NCBI GenBank assembly: GCA_020029475.1
Contig: JAIBJG010000005.1
Coordinates: 13,169-77,168 of the forward strand
Direction of reading: 5' to 3'
DNA: 64,000 nt
DNA from: Methanobacteriota archaeon
Lineage (GTDB): Archaea; Thermoplasmatota; Thermoplasmata; RBG-16-68-12
Part shown: one piece after another, positions 4,300-20,673 of the stretch
How positions within the stretch are numbered: position 1 is the first letter of the stretch
Layout: every line of letters begins with the position of its first letter
Program-made: the position numbers and the translations under genes
The notes under the pieces: generated by a model
What the model was told of the DNA's origin: nothing
The model's input: only the letters and a program-made list of their open reading frames with translations
Database searches by the model: none

Positions 4300-4368
4300 A
4301 CCGGACAAGGGCCAAGGAACGACTTCGAAACCCTTTCCGGCTCCGACGCCCGCGTGCGGCCGGGGCGA

Positions 4369-4385
4369 TTCTTTCTTTCGTTTTC
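4369..4385 (+). terminator. oligo-T tract (ttctttctttcgttttcc), candidate archaeal terminator after the zinc-ribbon gene
   Basis: Archaeal termination typically occurs at T-rich tracts; this is the only T-rich run in the 140-nt spacer before the next gene. Confidence 0.25.
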
Positions 4386-4438
4386 CAGGTGAGCGGGAGC
4401 GCCGAACGTCCAAATACCGCAGGGGCGCTCCAGCCCGC

Positions 4439-5170
4439 GTGGACGAGATCGAGGTCGGCCCAGGCGTGTCCGTAACCCGCCACTTCGCCCTCCTGCTCGA
4501 GGACGAGGGCGCGGTCGCGATCAGCGACCTCCACCTCGGGTTCGAGGCGGCCCTCGCGGAGCAGGGGGTGTCGATCCCGCGGTTCCAGCGGCGGGAGATC
4601 CTGGAGCGGCTCGCCCGCCTCCTCGACGCGTACGAGCCCGAGAGGCTGATCATCGCGGGGGACTTCAAGCACGAGTTCTCGAAGAACCTCTCGGACGAGT
4701 GGGTGGAGATCAAGCAGGTCCTGCGGTTCCTCCAGCAGCGGACGGAGCCGATCGTCGTGCGGGGGAACCACGACAACTTCCTCGCGACGATCCTCGGCGA
4801 CCTGAGGATGACCCTCCACGACCGGTACGACCTGGGCGGGTACACGTTCGTCCACGGCCACGAGGAGGTCCAGGCCCTCGGGACGATTGTGATGGGCCAC
4901 GAGCACCCCGCCGTGAAGCTGCGGGATGCCCTGGGCGCCACCGTGAGCGTCCCCGCGTTCCTCGTGGCGGAGCGGGTGATCGTCCTCCCCGCGTTCAGCC
5001 CCCTTGCCCTTGGCGTCAATGTCGCGAGCTATCCGTACCTATCCCCGATCCTCAACGCGATCGACGTCGACGGGGCCCGGGTCATCGGGGTCGACGAGAA
5101 GGGGGGGCTCCTGGACTTCGGTCGGGTCGGGGACTTGCAGGCCGCGGACGCAAGCCTTCTCCTCCGGTGA
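4439..5170 (+). CDS. metallophosphoesterase (calcineurin-like, ICC/SbcD-related archaeal phosphoesterase)
   Basis: ISDLHLG...IIAGDFKHEF...VRGNHDNF...FVHGHEH motifs (D-x-H, GD, GNH(D/E), GH). GTG start. Confidence 0.8.
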   Translation: MDEIEVGPGVSVTRHFALLLEDEGAVAISDLHLGFEAALAEQGVSIPRFQRREILERLARLLDAYEPERLIIAGDFKHEFSKNLSDEWVEIKQVLRFLQQRTEPIVVRGNHDNFLATILGDLRMTLHDRYDLGGYTFVHGHEEVQALGTIVMGHEHPAVKLRDALGATVSVPAFLVAERVIVLPAFSPLALGVNVASYPYLSPILNAIDVDGARVIGVDEKGGLLDFGRVGDLQAADASLLLR

Positions 5171-5274: not shown

Positions 5275-8200
5275 TTGACTCCGACTGTCGGGGGTTCTCC
5301 CGCTCGCCGACGCGGCGAACGGTACGTTGCCGTCCTTGCCCTGATCGTCCTCCTCGCGCCAGGCCTCCAGGGGGCGAGACCTTCCGCGGCCGCGGGCGGG
5401 ACTTCCTCGATCATGGCGGGCCCTCCAACGACGATTGTCCTGCAGCCGGACGGGGCGAATGGGACGGACACGGCGATCGAGCGCTCGACCCCCGCATGGA
5501 ACTTCGGGGACAGTGCGACCCTCTGGGTCGGACCCGATCCCGGGACCGGGGGACTCGCCCGCTCCCTTCTGCGGTTTGACCTGAGCGCACTGCCGCCCGC
5601 GACAGACGTCGTCAACGCGTCCCTCGAACTGTTCGAGACCGCGGGGGGCATGGGGTCCGTGGACGTTCGCCGCGCGTCCGCACCGTGGACGGAAGGGGAT
5701 GGAGACCGCGCCTGGAGTCGGGTCCCAATCCTGGTCCGCGAGACCGCGGGAGTCCGCCGCGTGCGGGAGCCCGTTGAGGTCGACCTCGATTTTGCGCTCG
5801 GCTCCATCGGCGACCCCGCGCGCGACCTCCGGGTCTGGCTCGACAGGAGGGAGGTCCCTTCGCAGGTGTATGCGACCCGATACAACGGAACCGGGGTGGC
5901 CTCAGCACGCGTCGTATTCGGGGCGAGCCTCCTGCCTTTCGAGAACCAGACGTTCGTGATCACGTACAGCACGAACGAGACGGTCGTCCCCCCATACCGC
6001 GGGAAGGGAATGGGGTCGGCGGCCCTCTGGACCTCCCCACCGGTCGGGTCCGGCGCCTCCGGGGTGAGCGTCGCCGATGTGGACGGCGACGGGGAGCTCG
6101 ATGTCGTGTACGGTACCGCGACCGGGTACGTGCACGACCTCTACCCGAACGGGACGACCCGATGGTCGACCCGCCTCTCCACGACGAACTCTGTGCCGTA
6201 CACGCCCCAGCTCGCCGATCTCGATGGGGACGGGACGATCGACATCGTGGCGATTACGAACGACCCCGCCCTTGTCCGCCTGAACGCGACGGGGAGCGTG
6301 CAATGGACCGCCCCGATGTCGGTTCCGGACCTCCCGTTGTCAACGCCAACCCTTCTGGACGTGGACGGGGACGGCGTCCTCGACATCCTCCTAGGCCGGA
6401 GGTCGAAGGCGGTCGACGCGTTCAGCGGAACGGACGGGGCGTTCATCCGGACGTTCCCCGCAGGGGACTGGGCGTACACCGCCAGCATCTTCGATCTCGA
6501 TGGAGACGGCGTCGGCGAGATATTCTTCGCGAGCGACGACCGGAACGTCCACACGTACGACGTGTCCGGAACACCCCTGTGGACGAACGCGCCCGGGAAC
6601 GCCTCGTTTCTCGAGAGCTCGGTCGCGATCGGGGACGTGAACGGGGACGGGTTCGCGGACGTCGTCGCGGGGGACGACCTGAACATCGGCGAGCAGTTCG
6701 CGCTGAACGCGACGGACGGGAGCGTGCTCTGGTCCGTGGCCGTCCCGGACTACCGGGAAGGCGGTCAGACCTTGGCGGACCTCGATGGAGACGGCCGGCT
6801 CGAGGTCGTACTCGGCCTCCATGTCGGTACCGTTCGCGCTCTCAGCGGCGCGAACGGAACGACCCTCTGGTCCTATCCCGGAGGGACGAGCCAGGCAGTC
6901 GCGCCCGCAATCGTCGACGTCACGAACGACGGGGCCCCGGAGATCCTGTACATGGACGACGGGACGACGATCCGAGTCCTGAACGGAACAGGGAGGCTCG
7001 TCCACTCCTGGAACATCGTTGCCAACAACCCTGGGCTTCGGACCCTGACGCAACACCCCATGGCCACACCGGCAGTCGTGGATCTCGACGGGGATGGCAC
7101 GCTCGAGGTCGTCGTGCCGACGGGAGGCGGAGTGCAGGCGTTCGGAACCGGCGGACTCGGGCGCGACTGGCGCACGTACGGGTACAACTGGAACCACACG
7201 CACCTCGCGGGGGACGGGACCTCCCCGGACGGAGCGCCGCTCCTCCAGGCGGGACCGGGAACCCCGGTCGAGGTGCCCGCCTCCGGGGCCTCCTGGGTGT
7301 ATCGCGATGGCGTGACGCGGTGGCTCTCGCCGGGCGGGGACGCCCTTGCGCCCGAGGCCTCCGCCCCCGCGCAGCCCGCATGGACCGCATGGAACGTCCG
7401 GGCCCTCGTCCGCGACTGGGTCACGGGCGCCTTCCCGAACGTGGGACTCGTCCTGGCGGATTCGGACGAAAGTACAGGAGCGAGCCACGGATACTCCAGT
7501 TCGGACTCGCCGAACGCCTCTGCGCGGCCCCGACTCGTGATTACGTACACCCTCCCGAGTACCGATCCCACCCCGCGGATCGTCGCGGCGATCCCGGCCA
7601 TCGTGCGAACGGAGGATAGCCCCCCGGTCGCCGTGAACCTCTCCGCATTCGCCGCAGACGACGATACCCCCCCCGGCCTCCTGCGGTGGAATGTAAGCGG
7701 GTATGATCCCGGGGTCGTCCGGATCACGGGGACGGGCGCGCTGGGGAGCCAAGTCCTCACGTTCTACCCGCAGAAGGACGCCTGGGGAAGCCGTCGGGTC
7801 ACGTATTGGCTGACGGACCCAGAGGGGCACATCGCGTCCGCGGAGTCTTGGCTCAACATCACCCCCGTGAACGACCCGCCCACGTTCGACCCGCCCGCGA
7901 CGTTCGTGGTACGATACAACGCGTCGTACGCGTTCGACTTCGGTCCGTATATCGGGGACGTGGACAACCCGCGGTCGGAACTTTCGCTGGCCACGGACGA
8001 TCCCGTCCACACCTCCGTCTCTGGATTCACGGTCACGTTCCTGTACCCGCGGACCTACCTCGACCAATGGGCGTTCGTCGGAATCGTGGCGAGCGACGTC
8101 GAGGACTCCGTGGGGAAGGTCGTCGCGGTGCGGATCACGACCGACACCCCGCCGGCGCTCGTGCGAAGCCTCCCGGACCTCACGATGTTCGAGGGCCAGT

Positions 8201-9750
8201 TCCTCCTAGGCGTCTTCGATCTGGACGACTACTTCACGGACCCGAACAACGATTCCCTGTTCTTCTCCTTCGGCTACTCCCACCTGACGATCGCCATTCA
8301 CGCGAACCATTCCGTGGACATCCAGGCCCAGTCGAATTGGTTCGGTGTCGAGCCCGTCACGTTCCGCGGGACGGACCCCCAGGGGGCGATCGCCGAGGAC
8401 ACGATTGCCGTCACCGTGATCGCGGTGAACGACCCGCCAGTCCTTGGCGCGTTGCCCGACCTAGGCGTCCGGTACGACGCGGCGTACCCGTTCAATCTCG
8501 AGCCGTACATCTGGGACCCGGACACCCCGATCGACGGGATTTCGGTGGTCGTCTCGAACCCTTATGTGAGCGTCTCCGGCCGGCTCCTCGTGCTCCTGTT
8601 CCCGGTCGCCCTGAACGGGACCACGCAGCCCCTCACGGTCACGATCTCCGATGGTCTTGCGAACGACTCCCGCACGATCAGTGTAACGGTCAGCGAAAAC
8701 TGGCCCCCAACGGTGCGGGCCAAGGTTCCCGACGCCACGTTCCTCGAGGACAGCGTCCTGAACGGTGCGTACGACCTCACGACGTACTTCGCGGATGTGG
8801 ACAACACTCCGCTGTTCTACAGCTCAGGGAACGTGAACGTCCTCGTGTCCATCAATCCCTCGGGGATCGTCGATCTGAGGGCGGCGGCGGACTGGTTCGG
8901 GGCGGAGCAGGTGACGTTCCGGGCCACGGACACCCTCGGGGCACTCGCCGAGGACTCCGTCTGGATCCGCGTGCTCCCCGTGGACGACGCGCCGGGGTTC
9001 GCCACCGTCCCCGAGGTCCGGCTGGACCAGACCGCGGCCTACGTCGACCTCCGGCCCTACCTGTTCGACGTCGACACGAACGTGTCCGACCTCATCCTCG
9101 TCACCTCGAGTCCGCACGCGACGATCGTCGGTCAGGGGCTCCTGCTGAACTACTCGGGCGATGCGGTAGAGGACGTGGAGGTCATCGTCAGCGACGGGAC
9201 CCTCACGAACCGGACGACGGTCCACGTGGTCGTCACGCTGGTCGGAGCGCAGGAACGGCTCCCCGGATATCTGTACTGGGTCCCCATCCCGATTCTCGCC
9301 GCCGGGTCGATCGGGTTCATCCTGTACCGTCGGCGTCAGGTGGAATGGGCCCTGCTCGTGACGAACTACGGACTCCTCGTCGGGAGCGTGTTCCGGGGGG
9401 ACCCGACCGTGTTGGACACGGACGTGATGTCCGGCATGCTCACGGCGATCCTGAACTTCGCGAAGACGAGCTTCTCGGACGAGAAGGTGCGGGAGATCGA
9501 TGAAATCACCCTGGGGGACCGGAGGGTGTCGATCGTACGCGGTTCGATGGCGTACCTTGCGGTTGTCTATCAAGGCCGCGCGCGGGGCTACCTCCCGCGG
9601 ATCTCAAAGTCTCTTCTCAACCGCATCGAGGCGGAGTACCCGGAGGCTCTCGGCACCCTCGTCGACAGCTCGAAGGCGAAGGCGATTCCGGTGCTCCTCA
9701 AGCAGTTCCTCGACCGGGCGTGGTGGCCGCTCCTGAAGTTCAACAACTGA
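5275..9750 (+). CDS. giant surface protein (1491 aa): signal/TM, DNRLRE-like domain, FG-GAP/beta-propeller repeats, ~5 tandem ~95-aa VNDPP (cadherin-like, tandem-95-type) repeats, TM helix, cytoplasmic alpha/beta domain
   Basis: N-terminus: RYVAVLALIVLLAPGLQGA, then DNRLRE-like ...ARSLLRFDLSALPPATDVVNASLELFE. At least eight D(V/L)DGDG..(D/E)(V/I)V FG-GAP blades. Repeats bounded by VNDPPTF / TDTPPAL / VNDPPVL / ENWPPTV / VDDAPGF. TM is YWVPIPILAAGSIGFILYRRRQ, followed by a ~140-aa C-terminal domain. The only in-frame start before the N-terminal hydrophobic segment is TTG at 5275. Confidence 0.8.
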   Translation: MTPTVGGSPARRRGERYVAVLALIVLLAPGLQGARPSAAAGGTSSIMAGPPTTIVLQPDGANGTDTAIERSTPAWNFGDSATLWVGPDPGTGGLARSLLRFDLSALPPATDVVNASLELFETAGGMGSVDVRRASAPWTEGDGDRAWSRVPILVRETAGVRRVREPVEVDLDFALGSIGDPARDLRVWLDRREVPSQVYATRYNGTGVASARVVFGASLLPFENQTFVITYSTNETVVPPYRGKGMGSAALWTSPPVGSGASGVSVADVDGDGELDVVYGTATGYVHDLYPNGTTRWSTRLSTTNSVPYTPQLADLDGDGTIDIVAITNDPALVRLNATGSVQWTAPMSVPDLPLSTPTLLDVDGDGVLDILLGRRSKAVDAFSGTDGAFIRTFPAGDWAYTASIFDLDGDGVGEIFFASDDRNVHTYDVSGTPLWTNAPGNASFLESSVAIGDVNGDGFADVVAGDDLNIGEQFALNATDGSVLWSVAVPDYREGGQTLADLDGDGRLEVVLGLHVGTVRALSGANGTTLWSYPGGTSQAVAPAIVDVTNDGAPEILYMDDGTTIRVLNGTGRLVHSWNIVANNPGLRTLTQHPMATPAVVDLDGDGTLEVVVPTGGGVQAFGTGGLGRDWRTYGYNWNHTHLAGDGTSPDGAPLLQAGPGTPVEVPASGASWVYRDGVTRWLSPGGDALAPEASAPAQPAWTAWNVRALVRDWVTGAFPNVGLVLADSDESTGASHGYSSSDSPNASARPRLVITYTLPSTDPTPRIVAAIPAIVRTEDSPPVAVNLSAFAADDDTPPGLLRWNVSGYDPGVVRITGTGALGSQVLTFYPQKDAWGSRRVTYWLTDPEGHIASAESWLNITPVNDPPTFDPPATFVVRYNASYAFDFGPYIGDVDNPRSELSLATDDPVHTSVSGFTVTFLYPRTYLDQWAFVGIVASDVEDSVGKVVAVRITTDTPPALVRSLPDLTMFEGQFLLGVFDLDDYFTDPNNDSLFFSFGYSHLTIAIHANHSVDIQAQSNWFGVEPVTFRGTDPQGAIAEDTIAVTVIAVNDPPVLGALPDLGVRYDAAYPFNLEPYIWDPDTPIDGISVVVSNPYVSVSGRLLVLLFPVALNGTTQPLTVTISDGLANDSRTISVTVSENWPPTVRAKVPDATFLEDSVLNGAYDLTTYFADVDNTPLFYSSGNVNVLVSINPSGIVDLRAAADWFGAEQVTFRATDTLGALAEDSVWIRVLPVDDAPGFATVPEVRLDQTAAYVDLRPYLFDVDTNVSDLILVTSSPHATIVGQGLLLNYSGDAVEDVEVIVSDGTLTNRTTVHVVVTLVGAQERLPGYLYWVPIPILAAGSIGFILYRRRQVEWALLVTNYGLLVGSVFRGDPTVLDTDVMSGMLTAILNFAKTSFSDEKVREIDEITLGDRRVSIVRGSMAYLAVVYQGRARGYLPRISKSLLNRIEAEYPEALGTLVDSSKAKAIPVLLKQFLDRAWWPLLKFNN

Positions 9751-9751
9751 G

Positions 9752-9782
9752 CGTCTTCGTTCGTTCCATGAAGACGGTCTTC
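9752..9782 (+). terminator. hairpin/palindrome just after the giant gene stop (cgtcttc-N11-gaagacg; gaagacGgtcttc)
   Basis: A 7-bp inverted repeat starts 2 nt after TGA (9748-9750), overlapping a perfect 6+1+6 palindrome. No strong oligo-T follows, so the terminator role is tentative. Confidence 0.2.
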
Positions 9783-9963
9783 CGCCGAGGCCGGGAGGGT
9801 TCGTCGGTGCCGTGGTGAGGAGGGGGACTTCGCCCGAGACCCCGTGACCGGTTCGGTATCCCCCCGCCATCAACGGTCTTTTTCAGACGTGACCCGTTTC
9901 CGTGGGCATCACAGCTTGTGCCGCAAAGGTCAATACGGCTCCCTTCATTCGCAGCGTCCGAAG

Positions 9964-10956
9964 GTGAGCCGAGTGCGGATCTCCGTCGGCAAGCTCCGCG
10001 GCCTCCAGCAGATCTCGGGCGAGACGGGCCGCTTCACGATGATCGCGATGGACCAGCGTGGGAGCCTCCAGAAGATGCTCCACCCGGAGAACCCCAAGGC
10101 CGCGACCTACGCGGAGATGGAGGCCGTGAAGCTCGGGGTCACGGAGGGGCTCGCCCGCCACGCGAGCGGGTACCTCCTCGACCCGGAGTACGGCGCCGCT
10201 CCCGCGATCAACAGGTTCGTCCTCCCCGGAAGCACGGGCCTCCTTGTGGCCTTGGAGACCTCCGGGTACGAGAAGAGGGGGAATTGGCGGCTCACGACCC
10301 TCCTCGGGGACTGGAACGTGGAGAAGGTGAAGCGGCTCGGGGCGAGCGCCGCGAAGCTCCTCGTGTTCTTCAACCCGGATGCCCCCCGGGAGATCGTCGA
10401 TCATCAGGTGGGCGTCGTTCGAACGGTCGCGGACGAGTGCCGCCGCCTCGACCTCACGTTCGTCTGCGAGCCGATGTCGTACCCCGTGGACGAGAGCGAA
10501 GAGGACTTCGCCCGCCACAAGGCGGACACGATCATCCGCACCGCGGAGATCCTGAGCCCGCTTGGCCTCGACGTCCTTAAGGCAGAGTTCCCGGGGGACC
10601 CGAAGGTGACGCCGGACCCGGAGGAGCTCCGGAAGAATTGCGAGCGGCTCACCCGCGCGACGAAGGTACCGTGGGTCGTCCTCAGCGCCGGCGCGGACTT
10701 CGACGTCTTCCACAAGCTCGTCGACCTCGCGTGCCGCGGCGGGGCTTCCGGCTTCCTCGCCGGCCGCGCGATCTGGAAGGATGCGTTCAAGGAGAAGTCC
10801 CTCGAGAAGCAGCTCGCGTACATCCGGACCCAGGGCGTCCGGAACTTCCAGGCCCTCGCGGACCTCGCGCACGCGCACGCGATCCCGTGGTGGGACTTCT
10901 ACGGCGGGAAGGAGAAGCTCCGGGACCGCTTCGAGGGCTGGTACGCGAAATACTGA
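9964..10956 (+). CDS. class I aldolase of the LacD (tagatose-1,6-bisphosphate aldolase) / DeoC family
   Basis: Matches LacD landmarks: MIAMDQRGSL (AFDQRGAL), YLLDPEYG (LLDPEYG), LVALETSGYE, AKLLVFF, DVLKAEFP (DVLKVEVP), VVLSAGADF, GFLAGRAIW (GVLCGRATW). GTG start at 9964 chosen by alignment to LacD N-termini; the track ORF begins at 9844. Confidence 0.8.
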   Translation: MSRVRISVGKLRGLQQISGETGRFTMIAMDQRGSLQKMLHPENPKAATYAEMEAVKLGVTEGLARHASGYLLDPEYGAAPAINRFVLPGSTGLLVALETSGYEKRGNWRLTTLLGDWNVEKVKRLGASAAKLLVFFNPDAPREIVDHQVGVVRTVADECRRLDLTFVCEPMSYPVDESEEDFARHKADTIIRTAEILSPLGLDVLKAEFPGDPKVTPDPEELRKNCERLTRATKVPWVVLSAGADFDVFHKLVDLACRGGASGFLAGRAIWKDAFKEKSLEKQLAYIRTQGVRNFQALADLAHAHAIPWWDFYGGKEKLRDRFEGWYAKY

Positions 10957-11935: not shown

Positions 11936-14314
11936 ATGCGGGGAGTGGGGGTCCAGGTTGCCGCCGCGCTTTCGATTGCACTGTTCGTCCTCATCCTCGC
12001 GGCGCCGGTTCAAGCGGCGGGCCCCGCAGATCCCGCTCCGCGTCCGGTGCCCACGCAGGATCCCGGACCGACGCCCGCCGCGTTCGTCCCCTTCGCCCCG
12101 AACGTCCGCGTGAACACTGTGAACTGGGGGTTCAATTGGCAGGTCGAGCCCACGATGGCCGTGAGCCCGCAGGGCCGCATCTTCGTCGGGTGGAAGGAGG
12201 CCCTCACCCACAACGGGGGCGGGCAGCGGGTCGGGTTCGCGACCTCCGCGGACCGGGGGGAGTCGTTCTCCCCGAACATCCTGATGCCCCTCGCGCAGCT
12301 CTCCCTCCAGTCCGACCCGTGGCTCACGGTCACGCAGACGGGGCGCGCGTACTTCACGCGGATCGAGTACACGAACACGGCGTCCTCCGGCGGGATCTCC
12401 GTCACGAACACGACGGACGGGGCCGCGTGGGGGACGACGTACTTCTACGATGACAGCCCGAACTTCGCGGACAAGGAGAGCGCCGCGCACGACGCGGCGG
12501 GGAACCTGTACTGGGTCTGGAACTCGGACGGAGCGACCCGCCAGGACCTCGCGTTCACGCGGACGAACGACGGCGGGGCGAGCTGGACCCCGAAGCGCCT
12601 CGTCGCGGACGGCGGGGGGAGCCTGGGCGGGATCGTGAAGGTCGCCCCGGGCGGCACCGTCCTCGCGACCTGGTGGTCGTACCTCTCGGACGACATCCTC
12701 TTCGACCGTTCGTTCGACGGCGGGGCGACGTGGGGCGGGGACGTCCGTCTGAACACGGTCCCGGGGTCCGCCCGGGCGTTCGGGTCGTGGCAGATCCCGA
12801 TCCCCGCGATGGACGTCGACCTCGCCTCCGGCGCGATCTACGTCGCATGGCCGGACGCCCGCCGCGGGAACCAGGACATCTACCTGACCCGCTCCACGGA
12901 CGGGGGCGCGACGTGGACGGAGACCCGGGTCGACGACGAGATCGGCACCGCGACCCAGTATATGGTGGACCTCGCCGTGGACCCGTTCGGGGGCGTCCAC
13001 GCGGCGTGGGAGGACGCCCGCAGCGGGAACTGGGCGATCATGTACACGAACTCGACGGACGGCGGCCGGACGTGGGGCCCGGAGCTCGCCGTCTCCACCG
13101 CGCCCACCCCGTCCACGTACGACCGCCCCGGCGACTACTTCGCAATCGAGTCCGGCCCGGACGGAACGATCTACGTCGTGTGGACGGACGGCCGCGGGGT
13201 GGACTTCGACATCTACTTCGCGAAGCTCGAGCGGACGTTCCCCTTCGTCGTGGACACGCTCCCCTCCGGGCTGAACGTCGTCGTCGACGGCCAGATGTCC
13301 GCAGCGCCCGCGACGTTCTCCTGGCGTCCCGGCGGCGTCCACACCGTCTCCGCCCCGGGGCCGCAAACTTCCGGGCCGCAGTCCCGCCGGGTCTTCGCCT
13401 CCTGGAGTGACGGCGGGGGCGAGACCCACGACGTGGTCGCCGGGGAGGCCCCCGGCGGGCTGACCGCGACGTTCACCACGGAGCACGAGGTCACGGTCCG
13501 GACCTCGCCGATCCCCCTGAGCCTCACCGTGGACGCGAGTCCGCTCGTCGGTTCCGTGACCGCGTGGTGGCCCGAGGGCAGCACGCACACCCTGGCCGCG
13601 GTGACGCCGCAGCCCGGGGCCATGGGGGTCCGCTACGTCTTCGTCTCCTGGAACGACGGTGGGGCCGCAACCCACCCCGTCACGCCGACCGGACCTGCGA
13701 CGTTCGACGCATTGTTCCGGCCGCAGTTCCTCCTCACCGTCGTCTCCGACCACGGGTCGCCCACGGGGGACGGATGGTACGACGCGTCCGCGGTCGCCAC
13801 GTTCGGCGTGCCCGAGAACGTGTCCGGCGCTCCGGGGACGCGGTACGTGTTCCGCGGGTGGTCCGGGGACTCCACGGACTCGGGGGCGGAGTCGGCCCTC
13901 TCCATGGACGGTCCGCGGACCGTGACCGCGACGTGGCGGACGGAGCACCTCCTCACCGTCGTCACGCCCTTCGGGACCGCGGAGGGCGGCGGGTGGTACA
14001 CGGAAGGCGGGGTGGCGACCGCGTCCGTCCAGGACACGTTAATCGTGAACGGCACGACGTACCGCTTCTCCGGATGGACAGGGGATTCGACGGACTTCTC
14101 GAGCGTGGTCCTCGTCCCGATGGACGGCCCGAAGAACCTCATCGCGACGTGGACCGTCGTCCCGCAGGGGCCGCCCGCCTCCGCCTTCGACGTCCTCCCG
14201 TGGATCGTCCTCCTGATCCTGATCGCGGTCGTGGGATTCCTGATCTTCTTCGTGCTCGGGCGCCGCAGGAGGAAGGAGGACGAGGAGGCCCGCCGGCCCC
14301 CGCCCTCCGCGTAG
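11936..14314 (+). CDS. secreted BNR/Asp-box (sialidase-like) repeat protein with four InlB-B/List_Bact-type repeats and a C-terminal TM anchor
   Basis: Signal peptide MRGVGVQVAAALSIALFVLILAAPVQAAG. Multiple S/TxDGGxTW Asp-boxes (SADRGESF, TNDGGASW, SFDGGATW, STDGGATW, STDGGRTW). Four ~70-aa repeats with (F/V)xSW(S/N/T)(D/G)... (VFASWSDGGGETHDV, VFVSWNDGGAATHPV, VFRGWSGDSTDSGAE, RFSGWTGDSTDFSSV). C-terminus: WIVLLILIAVVGFLIFFVLGRRRRKEDEE. Confidence 0.8.
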   Translation: MRGVGVQVAAALSIALFVLILAAPVQAAGPADPAPRPVPTQDPGPTPAAFVPFAPNVRVNTVNWGFNWQVEPTMAVSPQGRIFVGWKEALTHNGGGQRVGFATSADRGESFSPNILMPLAQLSLQSDPWLTVTQTGRAYFTRIEYTNTASSGGISVTNTTDGAAWGTTYFYDDSPNFADKESAAHDAAGNLYWVWNSDGATRQDLAFTRTNDGGASWTPKRLVADGGGSLGGIVKVAPGGTVLATWWSYLSDDILFDRSFDGGATWGGDVRLNTVPGSARAFGSWQIPIPAMDVDLASGAIYVAWPDARRGNQDIYLTRSTDGGATWTETRVDDEIGTATQYMVDLAVDPFGGVHAAWEDARSGNWAIMYTNSTDGGRTWGPELAVSTAPTPSTYDRPGDYFAIESGPDGTIYVVWTDGRGVDFDIYFAKLERTFPFVVDTLPSGLNVVVDGQMSAAPATFSWRPGGVHTVSAPGPQTSGPQSRRVFASWSDGGGETHDVVAGEAPGGLTATFTTEHEVTVRTSPIPLSLTVDASPLVGSVTAWWPEGSTHTLAAVTPQPGAMGVRYVFVSWNDGGAATHPVTPTGPATFDALFRPQFLLTVVSDHGSPTGDGWYDASAVATFGVPENVSGAPGTRYVFRGWSGDSTDSGAESALSMDGPRTVTATWRTEHLLTVVTPFGTAEGGGWYTEGGVATASVQDTLIVNGTTYRFSGWTGDSTDFSSVVLVPMDGPKNLIATWTVVPQGPPASAFDVLPWIVLLILIAVVGFLIFFVLGRRRRKEDEEARRPPPSA

Positions 14315-15111: not shown

Positions 15112-17082
15112 ATGAGGGCGGTGGTGGCGGCGGTCGCGATCCTCGCGATCCTCACCCTCCCCCACGGCCTCGAGGCCTTCCTCCCGGGGGACGCCGGTCC
15201 GGCGCATGCGCCCTCCCCTGCCGGGCCCGCCCCGCCCTCCCCTCATCTTTTTCCCGCCCGCATGGCGGGAGAACGGACCCGCGGACCGGGCCCGCACCCG
15301 TTGATCGCCGAGGTCTTCTACGACGCCGTGCGGGACGACGAGTACGTCGTCGTCGCGAACCCCGCCTCGACGGCCGTGGACCTCTCCGGGTGGCGGTTGA
15401 CGGACCGGGAGGGGACGATCGAATTCCCCGCCATGGCGATCCTCGCAGGGGGGGCCCGCGCGGTCGTCGCCCGAAACGCGACCTCGTACGCCGAGGACAC
15501 CCTCGACGAGGCGGAGTACACGTACGGCGCCGGGGACGTCAGGGGCATGACCGTCGTCGGGCGGATCCCGCAACTGAACAACGACGGGGACGAAGTGCTG
15601 CTCCTCGATCCCACGGGGGCGGTGATCGACGCGTTCGTGTACGGCTCGTCCCCGTATTCCGAGGACGGATGGGGCGGGACGGCCGCCGGGAGGGTCCCGA
15701 AGGGGAAGCGCGGGGTCCGTGCCTCCAGCGGGGGCGGGTTCGTCGACACGGACACCGCCACGGACTGGGACTCCCTCCGGAGCTACGGCCTCGGCCAGTC
15801 CGAGCTCCCGTTCCGGCGATTCGAAATCGATGGGACCGCCTCGGGGTTCCTGTCCCCGGATGAGTCCCTGCCGGCGCTGCAGGCGCTCCTGGACCGTGCG
15901 ACGTCGTCGATCCACGCGAGCCTCTACACGCTCACGAACCCGATGCTCGGGGAATCCTTGCGGGGTGCAGCGGTGCGGGGCCTCGACGTGAGACTTCTCC
16001 TTGAGGGGGGCCCCGTCGGCGGGATCGACGAACGGGAGTGGGAGCTCGCTTCGCGCATCACTACCGCGGGCGGGTCCGTGCGGTTCCTGGTGGACGACGT
16101 CGACCGCGGCACCTTCGCCCGCTATCGCTTCCTCCATGCCAAGTACGCGGTGATCGACGCCCGGACCGTCGTGGCGGGCTCGGAGAACTGGGGGGAGCAC
16201 GGATACCCTTCCGCGGGCCGCACCGGGAACCGGGGCTGGCAGCTCGCGATCGACGACCTGGACCTCGCGGCGTATTTCGAGGACCTCTTCCGGCAGGATT
16301 TCGATCCCCGAAGGCGGGATTCGGTCCCCCTGTCTGAATTCTCGCCGAACCTCTACGTGAGCAACGACACGGCATCGAACGAGACGTACCGGTTCCCGAT
16401 TCCGTCCTCCCACCATTCCGGCCGCTTCGCCGTGACCCCGGTGGTCGCCCCGGACCACGCGTTGCGGGGTGACGCCCTCCTCGGCCTCCTGGCGTCCGCG
16501 ACGGAGACCCTCGAGGTCGAGGCGTTCTACGTCTCGAAGACTTGGGGCATGGGGCCGGACCTCTATCTGGAGGCGGCGATCGAGGCCGCCCGCCACGGGG
16601 TCCGGGTCCGCATCCTCCTGGACGGGACATGGTACAACGTTGAGGGAGACGACCCCGTCGACAACGACGACACCGTCGCATACGTGAACGGGATCGCACG
16701 CCGGGAGGGGCTGCCCCTGGAAGCGAAAGTCATCGACGCGGACTCCCGCGGCCTCTCGAAGGTCCACAACAAGGGCGTCCTCGTGGACGGCCGCGTCGCG
16801 TTCGTGTCGAGCCTGAACTGGAACCGGAACGCCGTGACGAACAACCGGGAGGTCGGCCTGATTGTCGAGGGCGGGGAGATCGTGGAACCGTTCCGCGCCG
16901 CGTTCGAGCACGACTGGTCGGAGGGCGGGAGGCCGGGCTTCGACCCCGCGGAGGTCCTCGGGAATCCGCTCCTCCTCCCGCTCCTCACGCTCCTCGTCGT
17001 GAACGTCGCGCTCCTCGCGGCGTGGCGGCGGGGACGGAGACGCAGCGGGAAAGGGTTAAGCGAGGAGGAGCCTACTCCGTGA
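15112..17082 (+). CDS. secreted lamin-tail-domain (LTD) protein with two PLD/HKD phosphodiesterase domains and a C-terminal TM anchor (PLD-superfamily nuclease/phospholipase-like)
   Basis: Signal peptide; LTD LIAEVFYDA...EYVVVANPASTAVDLSGWRLTD...DEVLLLDPTGAVIDAFVYG; HKD motifs FLHAKYAVIDARTVVAGSENW and VHNKGVLVDGRVAFVSSLNW. C-terminus: LLLPLLTLLVVNVALLAAWRRGRRR. Confidence 0.8.
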   Translation: MRAVVAAVAILAILTLPHGLEAFLPGDAGPAHAPSPAGPAPPSPHLFPARMAGERTRGPGPHPLIAEVFYDAVRDDEYVVVANPASTAVDLSGWRLTDREGTIEFPAMAILAGGARAVVARNATSYAEDTLDEAEYTYGAGDVRGMTVVGRIPQLNNDGDEVLLLDPTGAVIDAFVYGSSPYSEDGWGGTAAGRVPKGKRGVRASSGGGFVDTDTATDWDSLRSYGLGQSELPFRRFEIDGTASGFLSPDESLPALQALLDRATSSIHASLYTLTNPMLGESLRGAAVRGLDVRLLLEGGPVGGIDEREWELASRITTAGGSVRFLVDDVDRGTFARYRFLHAKYAVIDARTVVAGSENWGEHGYPSAGRTGNRGWQLAIDDLDLAAYFEDLFRQDFDPRRRDSVPLSEFSPNLYVSNDTASNETYRFPIPSSHHSGRFAVTPVVAPDHALRGDALLGLLASATETLEVEAFYVSKTWGMGPDLYLEAAIEAARHGVRVRILLDGTWYNVEGDDPVDNDDTVAYVNGIARREGLPLEAKVIDADSRGLSKVHNKGVLVDGRVAFVSSLNWNRNAVTNNREVGLIVEGGEIVEPFRAAFEHDWSEGGRPGFDPAEVLGNPLLLPLLTLLVVNVALLAAWRRGRRRSGKGLSEEEPTP

Positions 17083-17083
17083 T

Positions 17084-18091
17084 GTGGCGTCCGGTGGCGC
17101 GCCCACGATTTCCGCGGGGGACCTCGAGAAGTACGGGTACTGCCCCCTGAACTGGTGGCGGAGCCTCGGGACCGCGGACGGGCTGGGGCCCGAGACAATC
17201 GAGGGGGAGCGGCGGCACGAGGAGGTCGCCGCGGAGCTGAAGGGGATCGAGGTCCACGAGATCCGCGCGAAGGAGTCCGAGCGGATGGTGATGTACTTCG
17301 CGATCGCCGCGTCCATCGTCGCGGTCCTCGGGATGGCGTTCTTCACCCCCGCTCCCGAGCAGATCATCCAGATCCTGATCATCATCTCCCTGATCTGGAT
17401 CCTTGCTGCGGTCTTCTTCCTGTACCGCGCGGAGACCCTCGTCACCCGGGATGAGAAACTGTACGCGGAGCGGACGATCCTCGTGTTCTCGATGGTCGCC
17501 GCGATCATCGCGAGCGTCGCGGTCTCGTTCGAGGCCACGGACCGGGCCATTGCCCAGGCGACCGTCGGCGCGGCCCTCGGGTGGCTCGTCGGGGCCTCAT
17601 GGTTCCTCGTCCGCTCCCTGAAGAGCCTCGAGATCGCCCGGATCGCGCGGGCGAAGCATGGGATCGGGACCGCGGCGGTCCCGTACGTGGACTCGGAGGC
17701 GGAGAAGCCGAAGCTGTTCACGTCGAAGCGGCACGGGCTCACGGGCCGCCCGGACGCGGTCCTCCTGGCGGGGGACGTCCACGTCCCCGTCGAGGTGAAG
17801 ACGGGCCGCACCCCCCGCGGGCCGCTGTTCTCCCACATCCTCCAGCTCGCCGCGTACTGCCTCCTCGTCGAGGAGGAGTTCGGGAAGCCCCCGCCGTACG
17901 GCGTGATCCGGTACGAGGGGGCCTCCCACGAGATCGAGTACAACGAGGACCTGCGGAAGATGGTCCTCGGGAAGATGGACGAGATGCGGTCCGCTCTGGC
18001 CCGCGGGGGCGGGGTCCACCGGAACCACAACCGCCCCGGGAAGTGCATCGGGTGCAGCCGCCGGGAGGGCTGCCCGGAGCGGCTCGGCTAG
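17084..18091 (+). CDS. Cas4-family (DUF83, RecB-like PD-(D/E)xK, 4Fe-4S) nuclease with a four-helix transmembrane insertion
   Basis: N-terminus ISAGDLEKYGYCPLNWW (Cas4 YCPR-W motif). C-terminal core GRPDAVLL...VPVEVKTG...ILQLAAYCLL...GVIRY...CIGCSRREGC matches motif II/III/QxxxY plus the C-x2-C-x5-C cluster. Residues ~65-180 form four hydrophobic helices (MVMYFAIAASIVAVLGMAFF, IIQILIIISLIWILAAVFFLY, ILVFSMVAAIIASVAVSF, VGAALGWLVGASWFLV). GTG start lies 1 nt after the PLD stop. Confidence 0.7.
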   Translation: MASGGAPTISAGDLEKYGYCPLNWWRSLGTADGLGPETIEGERRHEEVAAELKGIEVHEIRAKESERMVMYFAIAASIVAVLGMAFFTPAPEQIIQILIIISLIWILAAVFFLYRAETLVTRDEKLYAERTILVFSMVAAIIASVAVSFEATDRAIAQATVGAALGWLVGASWFLVRSLKSLEIARIARAKHGIGTAAVPYVDSEAEKPKLFTSKRHGLTGRPDAVLLAGDVHVPVEVKTGRTPRGPLFSHILQLAAYCLLVEEEFGKPPPYGVIRYEGASHEIEYNEDLRKMVLGKMDEMRSALARGGGVHRNHNRPGKCIGCSRREGCPERLG

Positions 18092-18423
18092 CGGCGGGCG
18101 GGCGGATCGCCGGGTCCCGTCACCGCCTTCGAGATCGTCTCGACCTTCTCCGTGAGCCGCTTCACCTCCTCCGCCATCCGGAGCATCTCCTGCTCGAACG
18201 GCGTGAAGTCCCGGGTCGACAGGATCCGGTGGGAGATGTAGATCCCGAGGAACGTCGCCCCGATGATCGCGAGGACCGCGATCACGATCAGGGCGGAGAC
18301 CATGATGAAGAAGAACGTGACGACGTCGTACGGGTTCACGACGCCGGCCACGATCGCGATCTCGATCGCCGCCAGGAGGCCGACGATAAGGAGCCAGAGC
18401 AGGGTCCACTGGCTGATCCTCAT
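18088..18423 (-). CDS. small membrane protein (2 TM) with a C-terminal coiled-coil tail
   Basis: 111 aa, MRISQWTLLWLLIVGLLAAIEIAIVAGV...FFFIMVSALIVIAVLAIIGATFLGIY...EQEMLRMAEEVKRLTEKVETISKAV. ATGA overlap with the upstream gene. Confidence 0.5.
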   Translation of the reverse strand: MRISQWTLLWLLIVGLLAAIEIAIVAGVVNPYDVVTFFFIMVSALIVIAVLAIIGATFLGIYISHRILSTRDFTPFEQEMLRMAEEVKRLTEKVETISKAVTGPGDPPARR

Positions 18424-18908
18424 CCCTCAGTCCCCCTGGGCACGAGGGCCCGGAAGTCCCCGGGGGGCCGGTTGAGCCCGGTGCGCAGGGTGCTCCGGTC
18501 CGTCATCGAGACGAAGTCCCCGACCTCGTCCACCCCCTGGAACACGGTCCCGTTCAGGGCGAACGTGGTCCCCTCGCGGTCCACGATGAGGACGTACACA
18601 TCGAACGCGTGGGTCGCGTTGCGGGAGAAGTTCAGCTGCAGGTCGTACGACTCCCGCTCAACGGCGGCGATCCGGAACGAGACGTTGTCCTGGCCCCGGA
18701 GCTCGATCGCGAGGGAGCGGTACATGTAGTGGTCCACGGCCCCGTGGAGGTCGATCACGACATCCGCGTCCGTGAGGCCGATCACGAGGGCGGGGATCGC
18801 GGAGAGGACCGTGGGGCGGCCCATCAGCCCCGGGGTCACGAGGACCAGCGCGAGGAGGGCGGGGATCACCGCGACCATCGCCCCCCGCCTCACGACCTCG
18901 AGCTGCAT
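18420..18908 (-). CDS. hypothetical membrane-anchored protein (N-terminal TM plus ~120-aa beta-rich domain)
   Basis: Start taken at MQLEVVRRGAMVAVIPALLALVLVTPGLMG; the track ORF extends upstream through R/S/P-rich low-complexity sequence that looks non-coding. Confidence 0.5.
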   Translation of the reverse strand: MQLEVVRRGAMVAVIPALLALVLVTPGLMGRPTVLSAIPALVIGLTDADVVIDLHGAVDHYMYRSLAIELRGQDNVSFRIAAVERESYDLQLNFSRNATHAFDVYVLIVDREGTTFALNGTVFQGVDEVGDFVSMTDRSTLRTGLNRPPGDFRALVPRGTEG

Positions 18909-19099
18909 CCTCGCGTCGAAACCCCCGGTTCGTAGATAAGTGTTGGCTCCACGGTAGCTCCCCGCCACCCGGAGGGAAAGAAAAGAGTGGGGCGGACTCT
19001 TCGTCCGCCCCGTTGTTGGGGGGAGGAAATCGTGACGTTCGCGGGCCGTGACCCCGACTTCCTTCAGGTCCGGTCCGAGTGCATCCGCATCCGCGTCGA

Positions 19100-19348: not shown

Positions 19349-19404
19349 CCCATCCGTATGCCAAGTCGGCCCATTTTGCCTTACGCTTGTCTGACGGCAT
19401 TCGG

Positions 19405-19440
19405 CCTGAAATATATAAACGTATTGGGGATATTATCGGC
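19405..19440. promoter_or_regulatory. AT-rich island (aaatatataaacgtattggggatattatcgg) in the divergent RHH/aminotransferase intergenic region; candidate BRE/TATA elements
   Basis: Only AT-rich patch in a GC-rich spacer; orientation and target gene are not resolved from sequence. Confidence 0.3.
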
Positions 19441-19548
19441 CCTGGTACCCCTCCGTTTCCACTGCAATCGGACTCCCCGCTCCCTGTACTCGCGGTCCGG
19501 CGGATCCGTGTCGAATGGGTTAAATCGGGAGGCGGGCTCCCTCGGGCG

Positions 19549-20673
19549 ATGGACGTCGAGGACACGGTCTTCCTGCTCCCGGGCCCCGTGAAGATGCACC
19601 CGCGGGTCCTCCGAGCGATGGGGATGCCCGCGATCAACCACCGGTCCGCCGCGTTCCAGGAGGTCCTCGGGGAGGTCCGGGAGCTCACAAAGTACCTGTT
19701 CCAGACCTCGGGGCGGGTCGCCGTCCTCAGCGGATCCGGGACCGCGGGGCTCGACGCCGCGGTGAGCGGCCTCCTTCGTCGCGAGGACCCCGTCCTCTGC
19801 CTCGTGAACGGGAAGTTCAGCGAACGGTTCCATGACCTGTGCAAGGTGTATGCGAAGCCCACGCCGCTCGAGTTCGAGTGGGGCCAGCCCGTGGACCCCG
19901 CCAAGGTCGCCGCGGCCCTCGAGAAGGGGGACTACAAGGCGGTCACGGTGTGCCACAACGAGACGTCCACGGGGCTCACGAACCCGGTGAAAGAGATCGC
20001 CGCGGCGGCCCGGAAGCGCGGCGCGATGATGATCGTCGACGGGATCACGAGCGTCGGCGGGATCGACGTCCGGCTCGAGTGGGGGATCGACGCCCTCGTG
20101 ATGGGCTCGCAGAAGTGCGTCGCGGCCCCGCCGGGTCTCTCCGCCGTGGCGGTGTCGGAGCGGGCGTACGCCGCCCTGCACGAGAGCTCCAGCTTCTACA
20201 CGGACCTGAAGGCGCACATCGACGGCCTCGAGGAGGACGACACCCCGTTCACGCCCGCGGTCCCGCTGTTCTTCGCCTTGCGGGAAGCCCTCCGGATGCT
20301 GAAGGAGGAGGGGCTCGAGGCGCGGATCAAGCGAACGACGAGGCTCGCGGACGCGACCCGCGCGGCCGTGGACGAGATCGACCTCGGCATGTTCCCGCGG
20401 AAGGGCTTCGAGTCGAACACCGTGAGCGCGATCCGCTACCCCGCGGGCGTGGACGACAAGAAGTTCCGGACCATCCTCGAGGAGGAGCACCGCACCGTCG
20501 TCCAGGGCGGGCAGGGACACCTCAAGGGGAAGATCTTCCGGATCGGCCACATGGGGATCGTGTCGATCGCGGACCTCGTGGCGGGGTTCGCGGGGATCGA
20601 AGCGACGCTCGCGAAGCTCGGCCACAGGTTCGACCGCGGGGCGGGTGTGGCGGCCCTCACGAGCTTCGCCTGA
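19549..20673 (+). CDS. class V aminotransferase (serine-pyruvate / alanine-glyoxylate / archaeal phosphoserine aminotransferase family)
   Basis: 375 aa, MDVEDTVFLLPGPVKMHPRVLRAM...VLSGSGTAGLDAAV...VDGITSVGG...MGSQKCVAAPPGLS (PLP-lysine region). Confidence 0.85.
   Translation: MDVEDTVFLLPGPVKMHPRVLRAMGMPAINHRSAAFQEVLGEVRELTKYLFQTSGRVAVLSGSGTAGLDAAVSGLLRREDPVLCLVNGKFSERFHDLCKVYAKPTPLEFEWGQPVDPAKVAAALEKGDYKAVTVCHNETSTGLTNPVKEIAAAARKRGAMMIVDGITSVGGIDVRLEWGIDALVMGSQKCVAAPPGLSAVAVSERAYAALHESSSFYTDLKAHIDGLEEDDTPFTPAVPLFFALREALRMLKEEGLEARIKRTTRLADATRAAVDEIDLGMFPRKGFESNTVSAIRYPAGVDDKKFRTILEEEHRTVVQGGQGHLKGKIFRIGHMGIVSIADLVAGFAGIEATLAKLGHRFDRGAGVAALTSFA

Follow-up and report, generated by a model that had tools for sequence, protein, structure and literature searches.

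We analysed a 64-kb window (the whole stretch of DNA under study, whose positions are used throughout) of a high-GC (~68%) archaeal chromosome and focused on two consecutive plus-strand genes. Gene 1 encodes a predicted exported protein that joins a lamin-tail domain (LTD) to a phosphodiesterase of the phospholipase D (PLD) superfamily. Gene 2 encodes a predicted Cas4-family nuclease carrying the iron-sulfur (Fe-S) cysteine pattern of that family, with transmembrane (TM) helices inserted in its domain. The gene 1 stop codon (TGA, 17080-17082) and the gene 2 start codon (GTG, 17084) are separated by 1 nucleotide (nt), as an earlier sequence-only reading of this DNA had stated. Gene 2 is laid out as follows, A1 being an alignment of 31 homologues:

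17084..18091 (+): gene 2, predicted Cas4-family PD-(D/E)XK/Fe-S nuclease interrupted by two TM hairpins, 335 amino acids (aa); TIGR00372 66.4 bits, PF12705 35.5 bits, PADLOC Cas4 2e-20, Foldseek matches to Dna2, Cas4, ACE1 and MGME1
17084..17263 (+): N-terminal Cas4 segment, residues 1-60, with C20 (YCPLNWW) and H45 (EGERRH); conserved in A1 and aligning to the N-terminus of Cas4 8d3l
17285..17425 (+): TM hairpin 1 (TM1 ~68-91, TM2 ~93-114); mean Kyte-Doolittle hydropathy 2.1-2.3 across the family
17474..17611 (+): TM hairpin 2 (TM3 ~131-149, TM4 ~155-176), a duplicate of hairpin 1 by internal alignment
17672..18088 (+): nuclease core, residues 197-335, with GRPD224, E237-V-K239, Q254xxxY258-C259, the HRNH motif and C321-x2-C324-x5-C330; invariant columns of A1

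The Cas4-type nuclease and its transmembrane insert

The N-terminus of the gene 2 product (MASGGAPTISAGDLEKYGYCPL...) aligned to its homologues from the first residues. The Cas4 hallmarks listed in the sequence-only reading were all present: in A1, C20, G221-R-P-D224, E237-V-K239, Q254...Y258 and C321-x2-C324-x5-C330 were invariant or nearly so, and the PD-(D/E)XK (RecB-type) catalytic residues D224, E237, K239, Q254 and Y258 were invariant in all 31 homologues. The four-Cys pattern of the Cas4 family (C20 with C321, C324 and C330) was conserved, together with H45, a fifth cysteine (C259) and the signatures TGRTPRGPLFSH and HRNHxRxGKC. C259 (17858-17860) comes right after QxxxY, as QLAAYC, and the bacterial core pieces described below, which have no N-terminal Cys on the same polypeptide, keep its equivalent almost without exception.

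Profile searches placed gene 2 just above the cutoff of the TIGR00372 cas4 model (66.4 bits, cutoff 65) and above that of PF12705 (35.5 bits, cutoff 22), whereas PF01930 scored below its cutoff (20.4 against 22.7 bits). The expected assignment of the two genes to Cas4 and PLDc profiles therefore stood for TIGR00372, PF12705 and, in gene 1, PLDc_2, and failed for PF01930. The Cas4 models matched residues 203-331, and the AlphaFold model was confident across residues 210-300, with a predicted local distance difference test score (pLDDT) of 84-96. The predicted fold matched Dna2, Cas4, ACE1 and MGME1 (Foldseek; Cas4 E ~1e-4). Automatic annotation names members of the family 'CRISPR-associated protein Cas4', 'Dna2/Cas4 domain-containing' or 'PD-(D/E)XK nuclease family'.

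Four charge-free hydrophobic stretches were found at residues 68-91, 93-114, 131-149 and 155-176, and the AlphaFold model showed four long helices at this insert, followed by the confident PD-(D/E)XK core. After deletion of residues 60-196 in silico, the cas4 model was matched end to end (positions 5-179 of 180, 73.2 bits), with the N-terminal segment covering positions 5-51, which makes the helices an insertion into a complete Cas4 domain and not an N-terminal extension. They interrupt the domain behind its N-terminal helix, the one that bears C20 and H45. Hydropathy, model and deletion match thus bore out the four hydrophobic helices that had been read between the N-terminal Cys and the core. 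Local alignment of residues 60-120 with residues 121-182 scored 68, compared with 25.3 +/- 4.6 in 1000 shuffles, which points to an origin of the two hairpins by internal duplication.

The mean number of Lys plus Arg (K+R) per segment across the family was 4.9 before TM1, 0.3 in loop 1, 3.6 in loop 2, 0.5 in loop 3 and 4.2 after TM4, placing the N-terminal segment and the core in the cytoplasm by the positive-inside rule. Fe-S proteins are normally matured in the cytoplasm. The gene 2 product is therefore predicted to be a Cas4-family nuclease tethered to the membrane, with its N-terminal segment and core on the same, cytoplasmic side. It had been called membrane-embedded; the anchoring stands, and the K+R distribution is better described by a membrane-tethered nuclease with a cytoplasmic active site. 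We regard the statements on architecture, topology and family, taken together, as very probable. Misassembly or gene fusion was rejected as the source of gene 2, since the same architecture is kept full-length in hundreds of proteins, on hundreds of contigs.

Family breadth, hairpin number and a split bacterial form

Two word-indexed searches returned 926 and 1,321 clusters of gene 2 relatives at 90% identity, most of them full-length (~320-340 aa) besides some N-terminally truncated calls, and all named relatives were uncultured Thermoplasmata-type archaea. A relative is encoded in 396 GTDB species genomes, the best 80 of which were likewise all from uncultured Thermoplasmata-type archaea. 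Family members are 44-90% identical and constant in length. A hidden Markov model search of 1.84 billion representatives gave 1,970 matches at E <= 1e-3 and 886 at E <= 1e-10. No family member was found on viral contigs in our scan.

We counted TM helices in the best 150 representatives, taking as complete those that carry the Cys motif at the N-terminus as well as the Cys triad at the C-terminus. The complete members had 2 TMs (~10), 4 TMs (~27) or 8 TMs (12), one of the last being a Thermoplasmata archaeon protein on a 3.6-Mb contig. On inspection by eye, the few odd counts proved wrong, a charged residue within a helix having upset the counting, and the TM number was even in every complete member checked. 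Members with 8 TMs include P0323, P0329, P0331, P0333, P0337, P0343, P0345 and P0346; those with 2 TMs include P0349, P0368, P0371 and P0373. Members vary by whole hairpins, in which the motifs ...W/YFA...A (odd helix) and ...LIWLLAA..FFLY (even helix) recur, suggesting repeated tandem duplication of one unit.

A further 43 representatives of ~175 aa consist of one N-terminal TM followed by the nuclease core, without the N-terminal Cys motif; the only annotated one is from an Anaerolineae bacterium. At the metagenome loci, the ~175-aa piece is directly preceded by a small open reading frame (ORF; typically 83-102 aa) in another frame, usually with -16 to +16 nt between the two. This ORF supplies the absent Cas4 N-terminal segment (YxYCARAWWL...GExxH), with one TM after it at the C-terminal end. 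The two pieces matched cas4 model positions 5-47 and 54-178. As this break point coincides with the archaeal insert site, the bacterial form appears to be a two-gene split version of the hairpin architecture. An even helix count had been argued to keep both Fe-S ligand segments on one side of the membrane, and the natural variants with 2, 4 and 8 TMs and the 1+1 split form agree with this.

The split-form loci are L088-L167 (for example, L129:113-379 + 381-911 and L137:4079-4330 + 4335-4871). Of the 80 loci, 19 have a translin-family gene upstream of the split genes, and downstream of them 16 have an NAD kinase gene and 8 a RecN gene. A tblastn search found no counterpart of the translin-like neighbour in the archaeal loci or the window.

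The LTD-PLD gene and the surrounding locus

Gene 1 and its features are given below, A2 being an alignment of 40 homologues; HKD denotes the HxKxxxxD motif.

15112..17082 (+): gene 1, predicted exported, C-terminally membrane-anchored LTD and double-HKD PLD-superfamily phosphodiesterase, 656 aa; Pfam LTD, PLDc_2 x2 and PLDc; AlphaFold pLDDT 84.8
15112..15177 (+): signal-peptide-like N-terminus, residues 1-22; hydropathy 1.92 over residues 3-21
15298..15645 (+): lamin-tail domain, residues 63-178; PF00932, 3.3e-15, 56.8 bits against a cutoff of 34.3
16135..16158 (+): first HKD motif, H342-x-K344-x4-D349; read from the sequence, invariant in A2
16765..16788 (+): second HKD motif, H552-x-K554-x4-D559; PF00614 at residues 551-573, invariant in A2
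16969..17025 (+): C-terminal TM anchor, residues 620-638; hydropathy 2.39, helix 621-645 in the AlphaFold model

Pfam, hydropathy and the 40-homologue alignment confirmed the signal peptide, lamin tail, two HxKxxxxD motifs and C-terminal TM that had been assigned to gene 1. The linker up to ~residue 60 is Pro-rich and of low confidence (pLDDT <50 at residues 16-59), the LTD region is modelled as beta-rich with pLDDT >90, and RRGRRR directly after the C-terminal TM forms a basic cytoplasmic tail. PLDc_2 matched in two stretches (117.8 bits, cutoff 27). Gene 1 belongs to the PLD superfamily (PF13091/PF00614), with two HxK(x)4D(x)6G(S/T)xN motifs and a bilobal, confident AlphaFold model; H342/K344/D349/N359 and H552/K554/D559/N569 were all invariant in A2. 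Some of the 301 homologues carry extra PKD domains, and these, with the signal peptide and C-terminal anchor, place the protein outside the cytoplasm. A PGF-CTERM sorting signal was considered and rejected, as the protein lacks a PGF motif and ends in a long basic tail.

Among NCBIfam models, DrmC scored best against the HKD lobes (71.1 bits, cutoff 133). The best NucT model reached 57.1 bits against a cutoff of 297, short of an equivalog match to Nuc/NucT nucleases, and the cardiolipin/phosphatidylserine synthase-type PLD reached 30.4 bits against 290. Sequence matches in the PDB were the Serratia phospholipase SpPLD, Zucchini/MitoPLD, PLD4, NucT and Nuc. By structure, SpPLD, the PLD3/PLD4 5'-exonucleases, vaccinia F13 and Streptomyces PLDs were essentially tied, SpPLD (7e0m) being the top match both by structure (Foldseek 2.8e-19) and by sequence (phmmer 8e-10). 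From fold and sequence, the substrate may be DNA or another nucleic acid, or a lipid.

To assess how gene 1 and gene 2 are linked, we compared the neighbourhoods of the 80 GTDB loci, out of 396 genomes, most similar to the query. An LTD-PLD homologue lay immediately upstream on the same strand in 50 of the 80, was absent despite at least 2 kb of upstream sequence in 19, and could not be judged in 11 with too short an upstream stretch; the PLD is thus paired in 50 of 69 informative loci and absent in 19 of 69 (up to 10 kb upstream viewed). Since this set was drawn from the closest relatives of the query, the share of loci with a PLD is probably smaller among all 396. Viewed from the PLD side, 5 of 6 homologues looked up had the nuclease downstream, and P0167 (45% identical) had none alongside. 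The junction ranges from +106 nt to a 170-nt overlap, and the 1-nt spacer recurs in the closest relatives of the window. Such tight spacing on one strand implies co-transcription and translational coupling in this lineage.

The junction survives at least three arrangements of the upstream neighbour: triose-phosphate isomerase (TIM) directly, TIM with an M29 peptidase, or an AAA/TPR protein. It belongs to a syntenic block, (FBPase-DeoC-)TIM-PLD-nuclease, with small111, orf160 and an RHH protein on the opposite strand, followed by a class V aminotransferase and Kae1; some of the adjacency is therefore simply inherited. In L022 the downstream block is kept and the PLD is absent. In PLD-less loci the nuclease has other, unrelated housekeeping neighbours, among them an IF-2B family gene with a CPBP protease; GyrB with MetRS and a roadblock protein; and GlmS with a sugar nucleotidyltransferase-like gene and a TPD-domain gene. 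The two-component PLD-nuclease module proposed from the sequence alone thus held in that the pair is conserved and tight in 50 loci, and did not hold as an obligate unit. The pairing is real and lineage-limited.

The PLD frame of a large subclade extends past the nuclease start by 119-170 nt (mostly 161), so that the Arg-rich PLD tail is encoded in another frame over the nuclease EKFGYCPLSWW segment. These loci are L005-L013, L018-L020, L023, L025, L027-L029, L032, L034, L036, L037, L055, L081, L082 and L085; in L081 (9904-10064), independent JGI gene calls overlap as well (8001-10064 vs 9937-10899). The gene of a TPD-motif protein (PF14811, E 1e-42) immediately precedes that of the nuclease in two genomes that lack the PLD (L068:9161-9976 and L078:9120-9950); the nuclease start overlaps the end of the TPD-motif gene in L078 and the genes abut in L068. 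The TPD-motif gene may be another lineage-specific operon partner of the nuclease.

On the other side of gene 2, two convergent genes were identified:

18088..18423 (-): small111, small membrane protein of no known family, beside the nuclease in 61 of 80 loci
18420..18908 (-): orf160, N-terminal TM or signal segment, directly upstream of small111 in an apparent operon; tblastn beside small111 in 44 loci

The hydrophobic N-terminal half of small111, read as about two TM helices, is followed by HR...FTPFExEMLxM and a helical tail, with G-A-x-F-x-G, H-R and F-x-x-F-E-x-E-M-L-x-M as invariant motifs. JGI gene calls of related loci show the same small111-orf160 order. The pair is retained in more loci than the PLD, and small111 also occurs in PLD-less loci, such as Halarchaeoplasma and Haladaptatiplasma genomes. 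Searches of PDB, Pfam, NCBIfam and PADLOC returned nothing significant for either protein. The stop codons of gene 2 (+) and small111 (-) overlap in CTAG (18088-18091), and this 4-nt stop-to-stop overlap recurs in nearly all small111 loci, including those of distant halophilic Thermoplasmata (L080). An ORF at 18609-18935 (+), with a first-codon-position GC (GC1) of 0.95, was rejected by homology as an antisense shadow of orf160; it misleads simple gene calling based on third-position GC (GC3).

We then examined the CRISPR and defence context. Tandem Repeats Finder detected no CRISPR-like array in the 64-kb window; a PADLOC scan of the 44 window ORFs gave no Cas family besides the Cas4 hits of gene 2 among the matches listed (25 of 29 families); and Pfam annotation showed no other cas genes in related loci. 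Gene 2 is non-CRISPR, no association with cas1, cas2 or an array being found, in line with what had been read from the sequence. Further single PADLOC matches were mad2 (1.7e-14), PDC-S37 (1.5e-10) and SspA/DndA (~1e-9). The SspA/DndA match probably stems from the class V aminotransferase gene (19387-20673), and no defence system could be recognised around any of the three. Membership of DISARM or Druantia was rejected because scores were below cutoff (DrmC 71.1 vs 133) and partner genes were absent from the window.

The window genes are mostly housekeeping: 2-oxoacid:ferredoxin oxidoreductase-like genes, a DeoC-type aldolase, TIM, Kae1/TsaD, Glu/Gln-tRNA synthetase, aminotransferases and an MMPL transporter, with several large secreted proteins. 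Upstream of the LTD-PLD protein (15112-17082, +) and consecutive with it is an exported 792-aa BNR/sialidase-like protein (11936-14314, +) with the same type of anchor, a C-terminal TM followed by an Arg/Lys-rich tail; just upstream of that lies an exported 1491-aa FG-GAP/CBM96 protein (5275-9750, +). The three hint at a local cluster of cell-surface hydrolases. The closest public relatives of the window are metagenome-assembled genomes labelled Methanobacteriota or Thermoplasmata archaeon, and the gene 2 product of VBML01000172 (isolate EA_22) is 83% identical to that of the window.

Proposed function and comparison with known systems

Since its catalytic residues are all invariant, we take the gene 2 product to be probably an active DNA nuclease. 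In the explanation we favour, the TM hairpins would act as an anchor, perhaps as an oligomerisation module, holding a metal-dependent, Fe-S-containing DNA nuclease at the inner membrane face, where it would cut or resect DNA approaching the membrane, possibly in cooperation with the small111 and orf160 membrane proteins. With its varying count of hairpins and its split form, the family looks more like the bearer of such a module than of a fixed channel. On the outer face, the ecto-PLD would serve scavenging by hydrolysing phosphodiesters outside the cell, in nucleic acid or in lipid head groups, as a lineage-specific operon neighbour of the nuclease and not its obligate partner. As a whole, this explanation has in our judgement close to an even chance of being right; reduced to its core, an autonomous DNA-end nuclease at the membrane to which the PLD is only loosely linked, it is a credible candidate that we hold tentatively.

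Several points weigh against this explanation. The TM helices are predictions from hydropathy and charge rules; residues 310-335, the Fe-S region, have a pLDDT <50; and the archaeal members all come from uncultured organisms. The invariant C259 makes five candidate cluster ligands together with C20, C321, C324 and C330, and may be one of the four that bind. On the PLD side, the tight, often overlapping junction in 50 species could be real functional coupling. A DNA-related gene pair would be favoured by the nuclease-type HKD models (DrmC, NucT) outscoring cardiolipin synthases, and by analogy with the LTDs of extracellular nucleases; LTDs accompany extracellular nucleases such as ExeM and also other membrane-associated, non-nuclease hydrolases.

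If the pair were instead an obligate two-component module for DNA uptake or scavenging, the ecto-PLD would nick or degrade extracellular DNA, a hairpin oligomer would pass DNA across the membrane and the cytoplasmic Cas4 domain would process the end that comes in. The same-strand arrangement with a 1-nt spacer or overlaps in 50 loci, an adjacency that outlasts upstream rearrangements, and the nuclease immediately downstream in 5 of 6 PLD-anchored look-ups argue for such a module, as do the resemblance of the PLD to NucT, DrmC and the PLD3/4 exonucleases, its LTD, the high oligomers formed by the characterised Methanosarcina mazei Solo-Cas4 (PMC12501428) and the extra conserved membrane partners small111 and orf160. 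However, 19 loci and the bacteria have the nuclease but no PLD, and P0167 is a PLD with no nuclease beside it; a hairpin number of 2, 4 or 8 plus a split gene is unlike a defined channel; no pilus-, ComEC- or DprA-type domain was found among the ~25 of 44 window ORFs scanned with Pfam; and the top structural match of the PLD is a phospholipase. We consider the obligate module unlikely. That the nuclease, small111, orf160 and, in this lineage, the ecto-PLD form a trans-membrane DNA uptake or export machine unrelated to ComEC- or Ced-type systems is a long shot; in such a machine, an extracellular HKD nuclease would feed DNA to an oligomeric hairpin pore capped on the inside by the Cas4-type resecting nuclease.

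A tethered nuclease might also serve innate defence by destroying linear viral or plasmid DNA on entry, with the PLD as an outer-face accessory nuclease. Cas4-like and DrmC-like PLD domains are frequent in defence systems (PADLOC matches), and injected DNA ends would be expected to appear first at the inner membrane face. Yet gene 2 sits in a stable syntenic housekeeping block instead of a defence island, its surroundings contain neither a helicase nor a methylase nor any other partner for defence, the conserved, constant-length family is unlike fast-evolving defence genes, and the PLD scores far under the DrmC cutoff; we rate a defence role as quite unlikely. The housekeeping block, together with the end-processing nucleases Dna2 and MGME1 among the fold relatives and the Serratia phospholipase as best PLD match, speaks for membrane-proximal genome maintenance, in which the nuclease would trim chromosomal ends in repair, recombination or segregation and the PLD would be an unrelated lipid- or phosphate-scavenging neighbour. 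The bacterial split genes beside translin-family, NAD kinase and RecN genes are weakly suggestive of this, but NAD kinase and RecN genes are commonly adjacent in bacteria anyway, so the link may be incidental. No repair genes adjoin the archaeal gene 2, and a repair nuclease has no obvious need of 2-8 TM helices. We consider maintenance, too, unlikely.

The threading of the Cas4 domain through the membrane is a lead to its site of action, the inner membrane face. Its active site, and by Cas4 homology its Fe-S site, would be built from segments flanking 2, 4 or 8 TM helices, and in the bacterial form this domain is divided between two polypeptides with one TM each. That naturally split version, like a soluble core made by deleting the insert, offers a clean experimental handle. 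The findings also correct the name 'CRISPR-associated protein Cas4', which hundreds of Thermoplasmata database entries carry although they have no part in CRISPR. Should the link to the PLD prove functional, it would point to an undescribed route by which wall-less archaea handle extracellular DNA.

We compared gene 1 with known PLD-type and LTD proteins. Like PLD3/PLD4, which are membrane-anchored, luminal 5'-3' exonucleases, gene 1 is a membrane-anchored double-HKD enzyme predicted to lie outside the cytoplasm (Foldseek E ~1e-18 to PLD3/4), and PLD4 and the PLD-family nucleases Nuc and NucT are among its sequence matches. Gene 1, a possible nuclease, shares only 16-19% identity with these enzymes, has a C-terminal instead of an N-terminal anchor and carries an added LTD. 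The bacterial PLDs (SpPLD 7e0m; Streptomyces 1f0i/1v0y) are also secreted two-lobed HKD enzymes, but have neither LTD nor membrane anchor. The LTD extracellular nucleases (Shewanella ExeM, Izemoplasma DNA-degradation loci) share with gene 1 the signal peptide, LTD, phosphodiesterase domain and C-terminal hydrophobic segment, whereas their catalytic domain is of the EEP or another type and that of gene 1 is a PLD. In both NCBIfam and PADLOC, the HKD lobes scored best against DISARM DrmC; DrmC is cytoplasmic, whereas gene 1 is predicted to be exported, and no DrmA, DrmB or methylase genes are present.

With CRISPR Cas4 (8d3l/8d3q, type I-C; 7mi4, Cas4-Cas1 fusion), gene 2 shares the N-terminal Cys and three C-terminal Cys, the conserved His, D/ExK/QxxxY and the PD-(D/E)XK fold. 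It differs in having no cas1, cas2 or array in the window, four TM helices interrupting the domain, a score under the PF01930 gathering threshold and the extra invariant motifs TGRTPRGPLFSH and HRNHxRxGKC. Solo-Cas4 nucleases are widespread outside CRISPR loci, with poorly understood roles. Like the Solo-Cas4 of the euryarchaeon M. mazei (PMC12501428; survey PMC5704561), gene 2 is a Cas4-family gene outside cas loci with four conserved Cys, the putative ligands of a [4Fe-4S] cluster, and its product is probably a metal-dependent DNA nuclease, possibly oligomeric. The earlier impression that a four-TM Cas4 architecture is undescribed agrees with the open-access literature: our searches of it brought up no Cas4 with TM helices, and membrane-spanning members go unmentioned in the survey of Cas4 phylogenomics (PMC5704561). 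The described solo-Cas4 proteins are soluble, whereas the gene 2 family has 2-8 TM helices inside the domain. We conclude that, while Cas4-type naming by annotation already exists, the membrane-anchored variant of the Cas4 family is, to judge from this literature, new.

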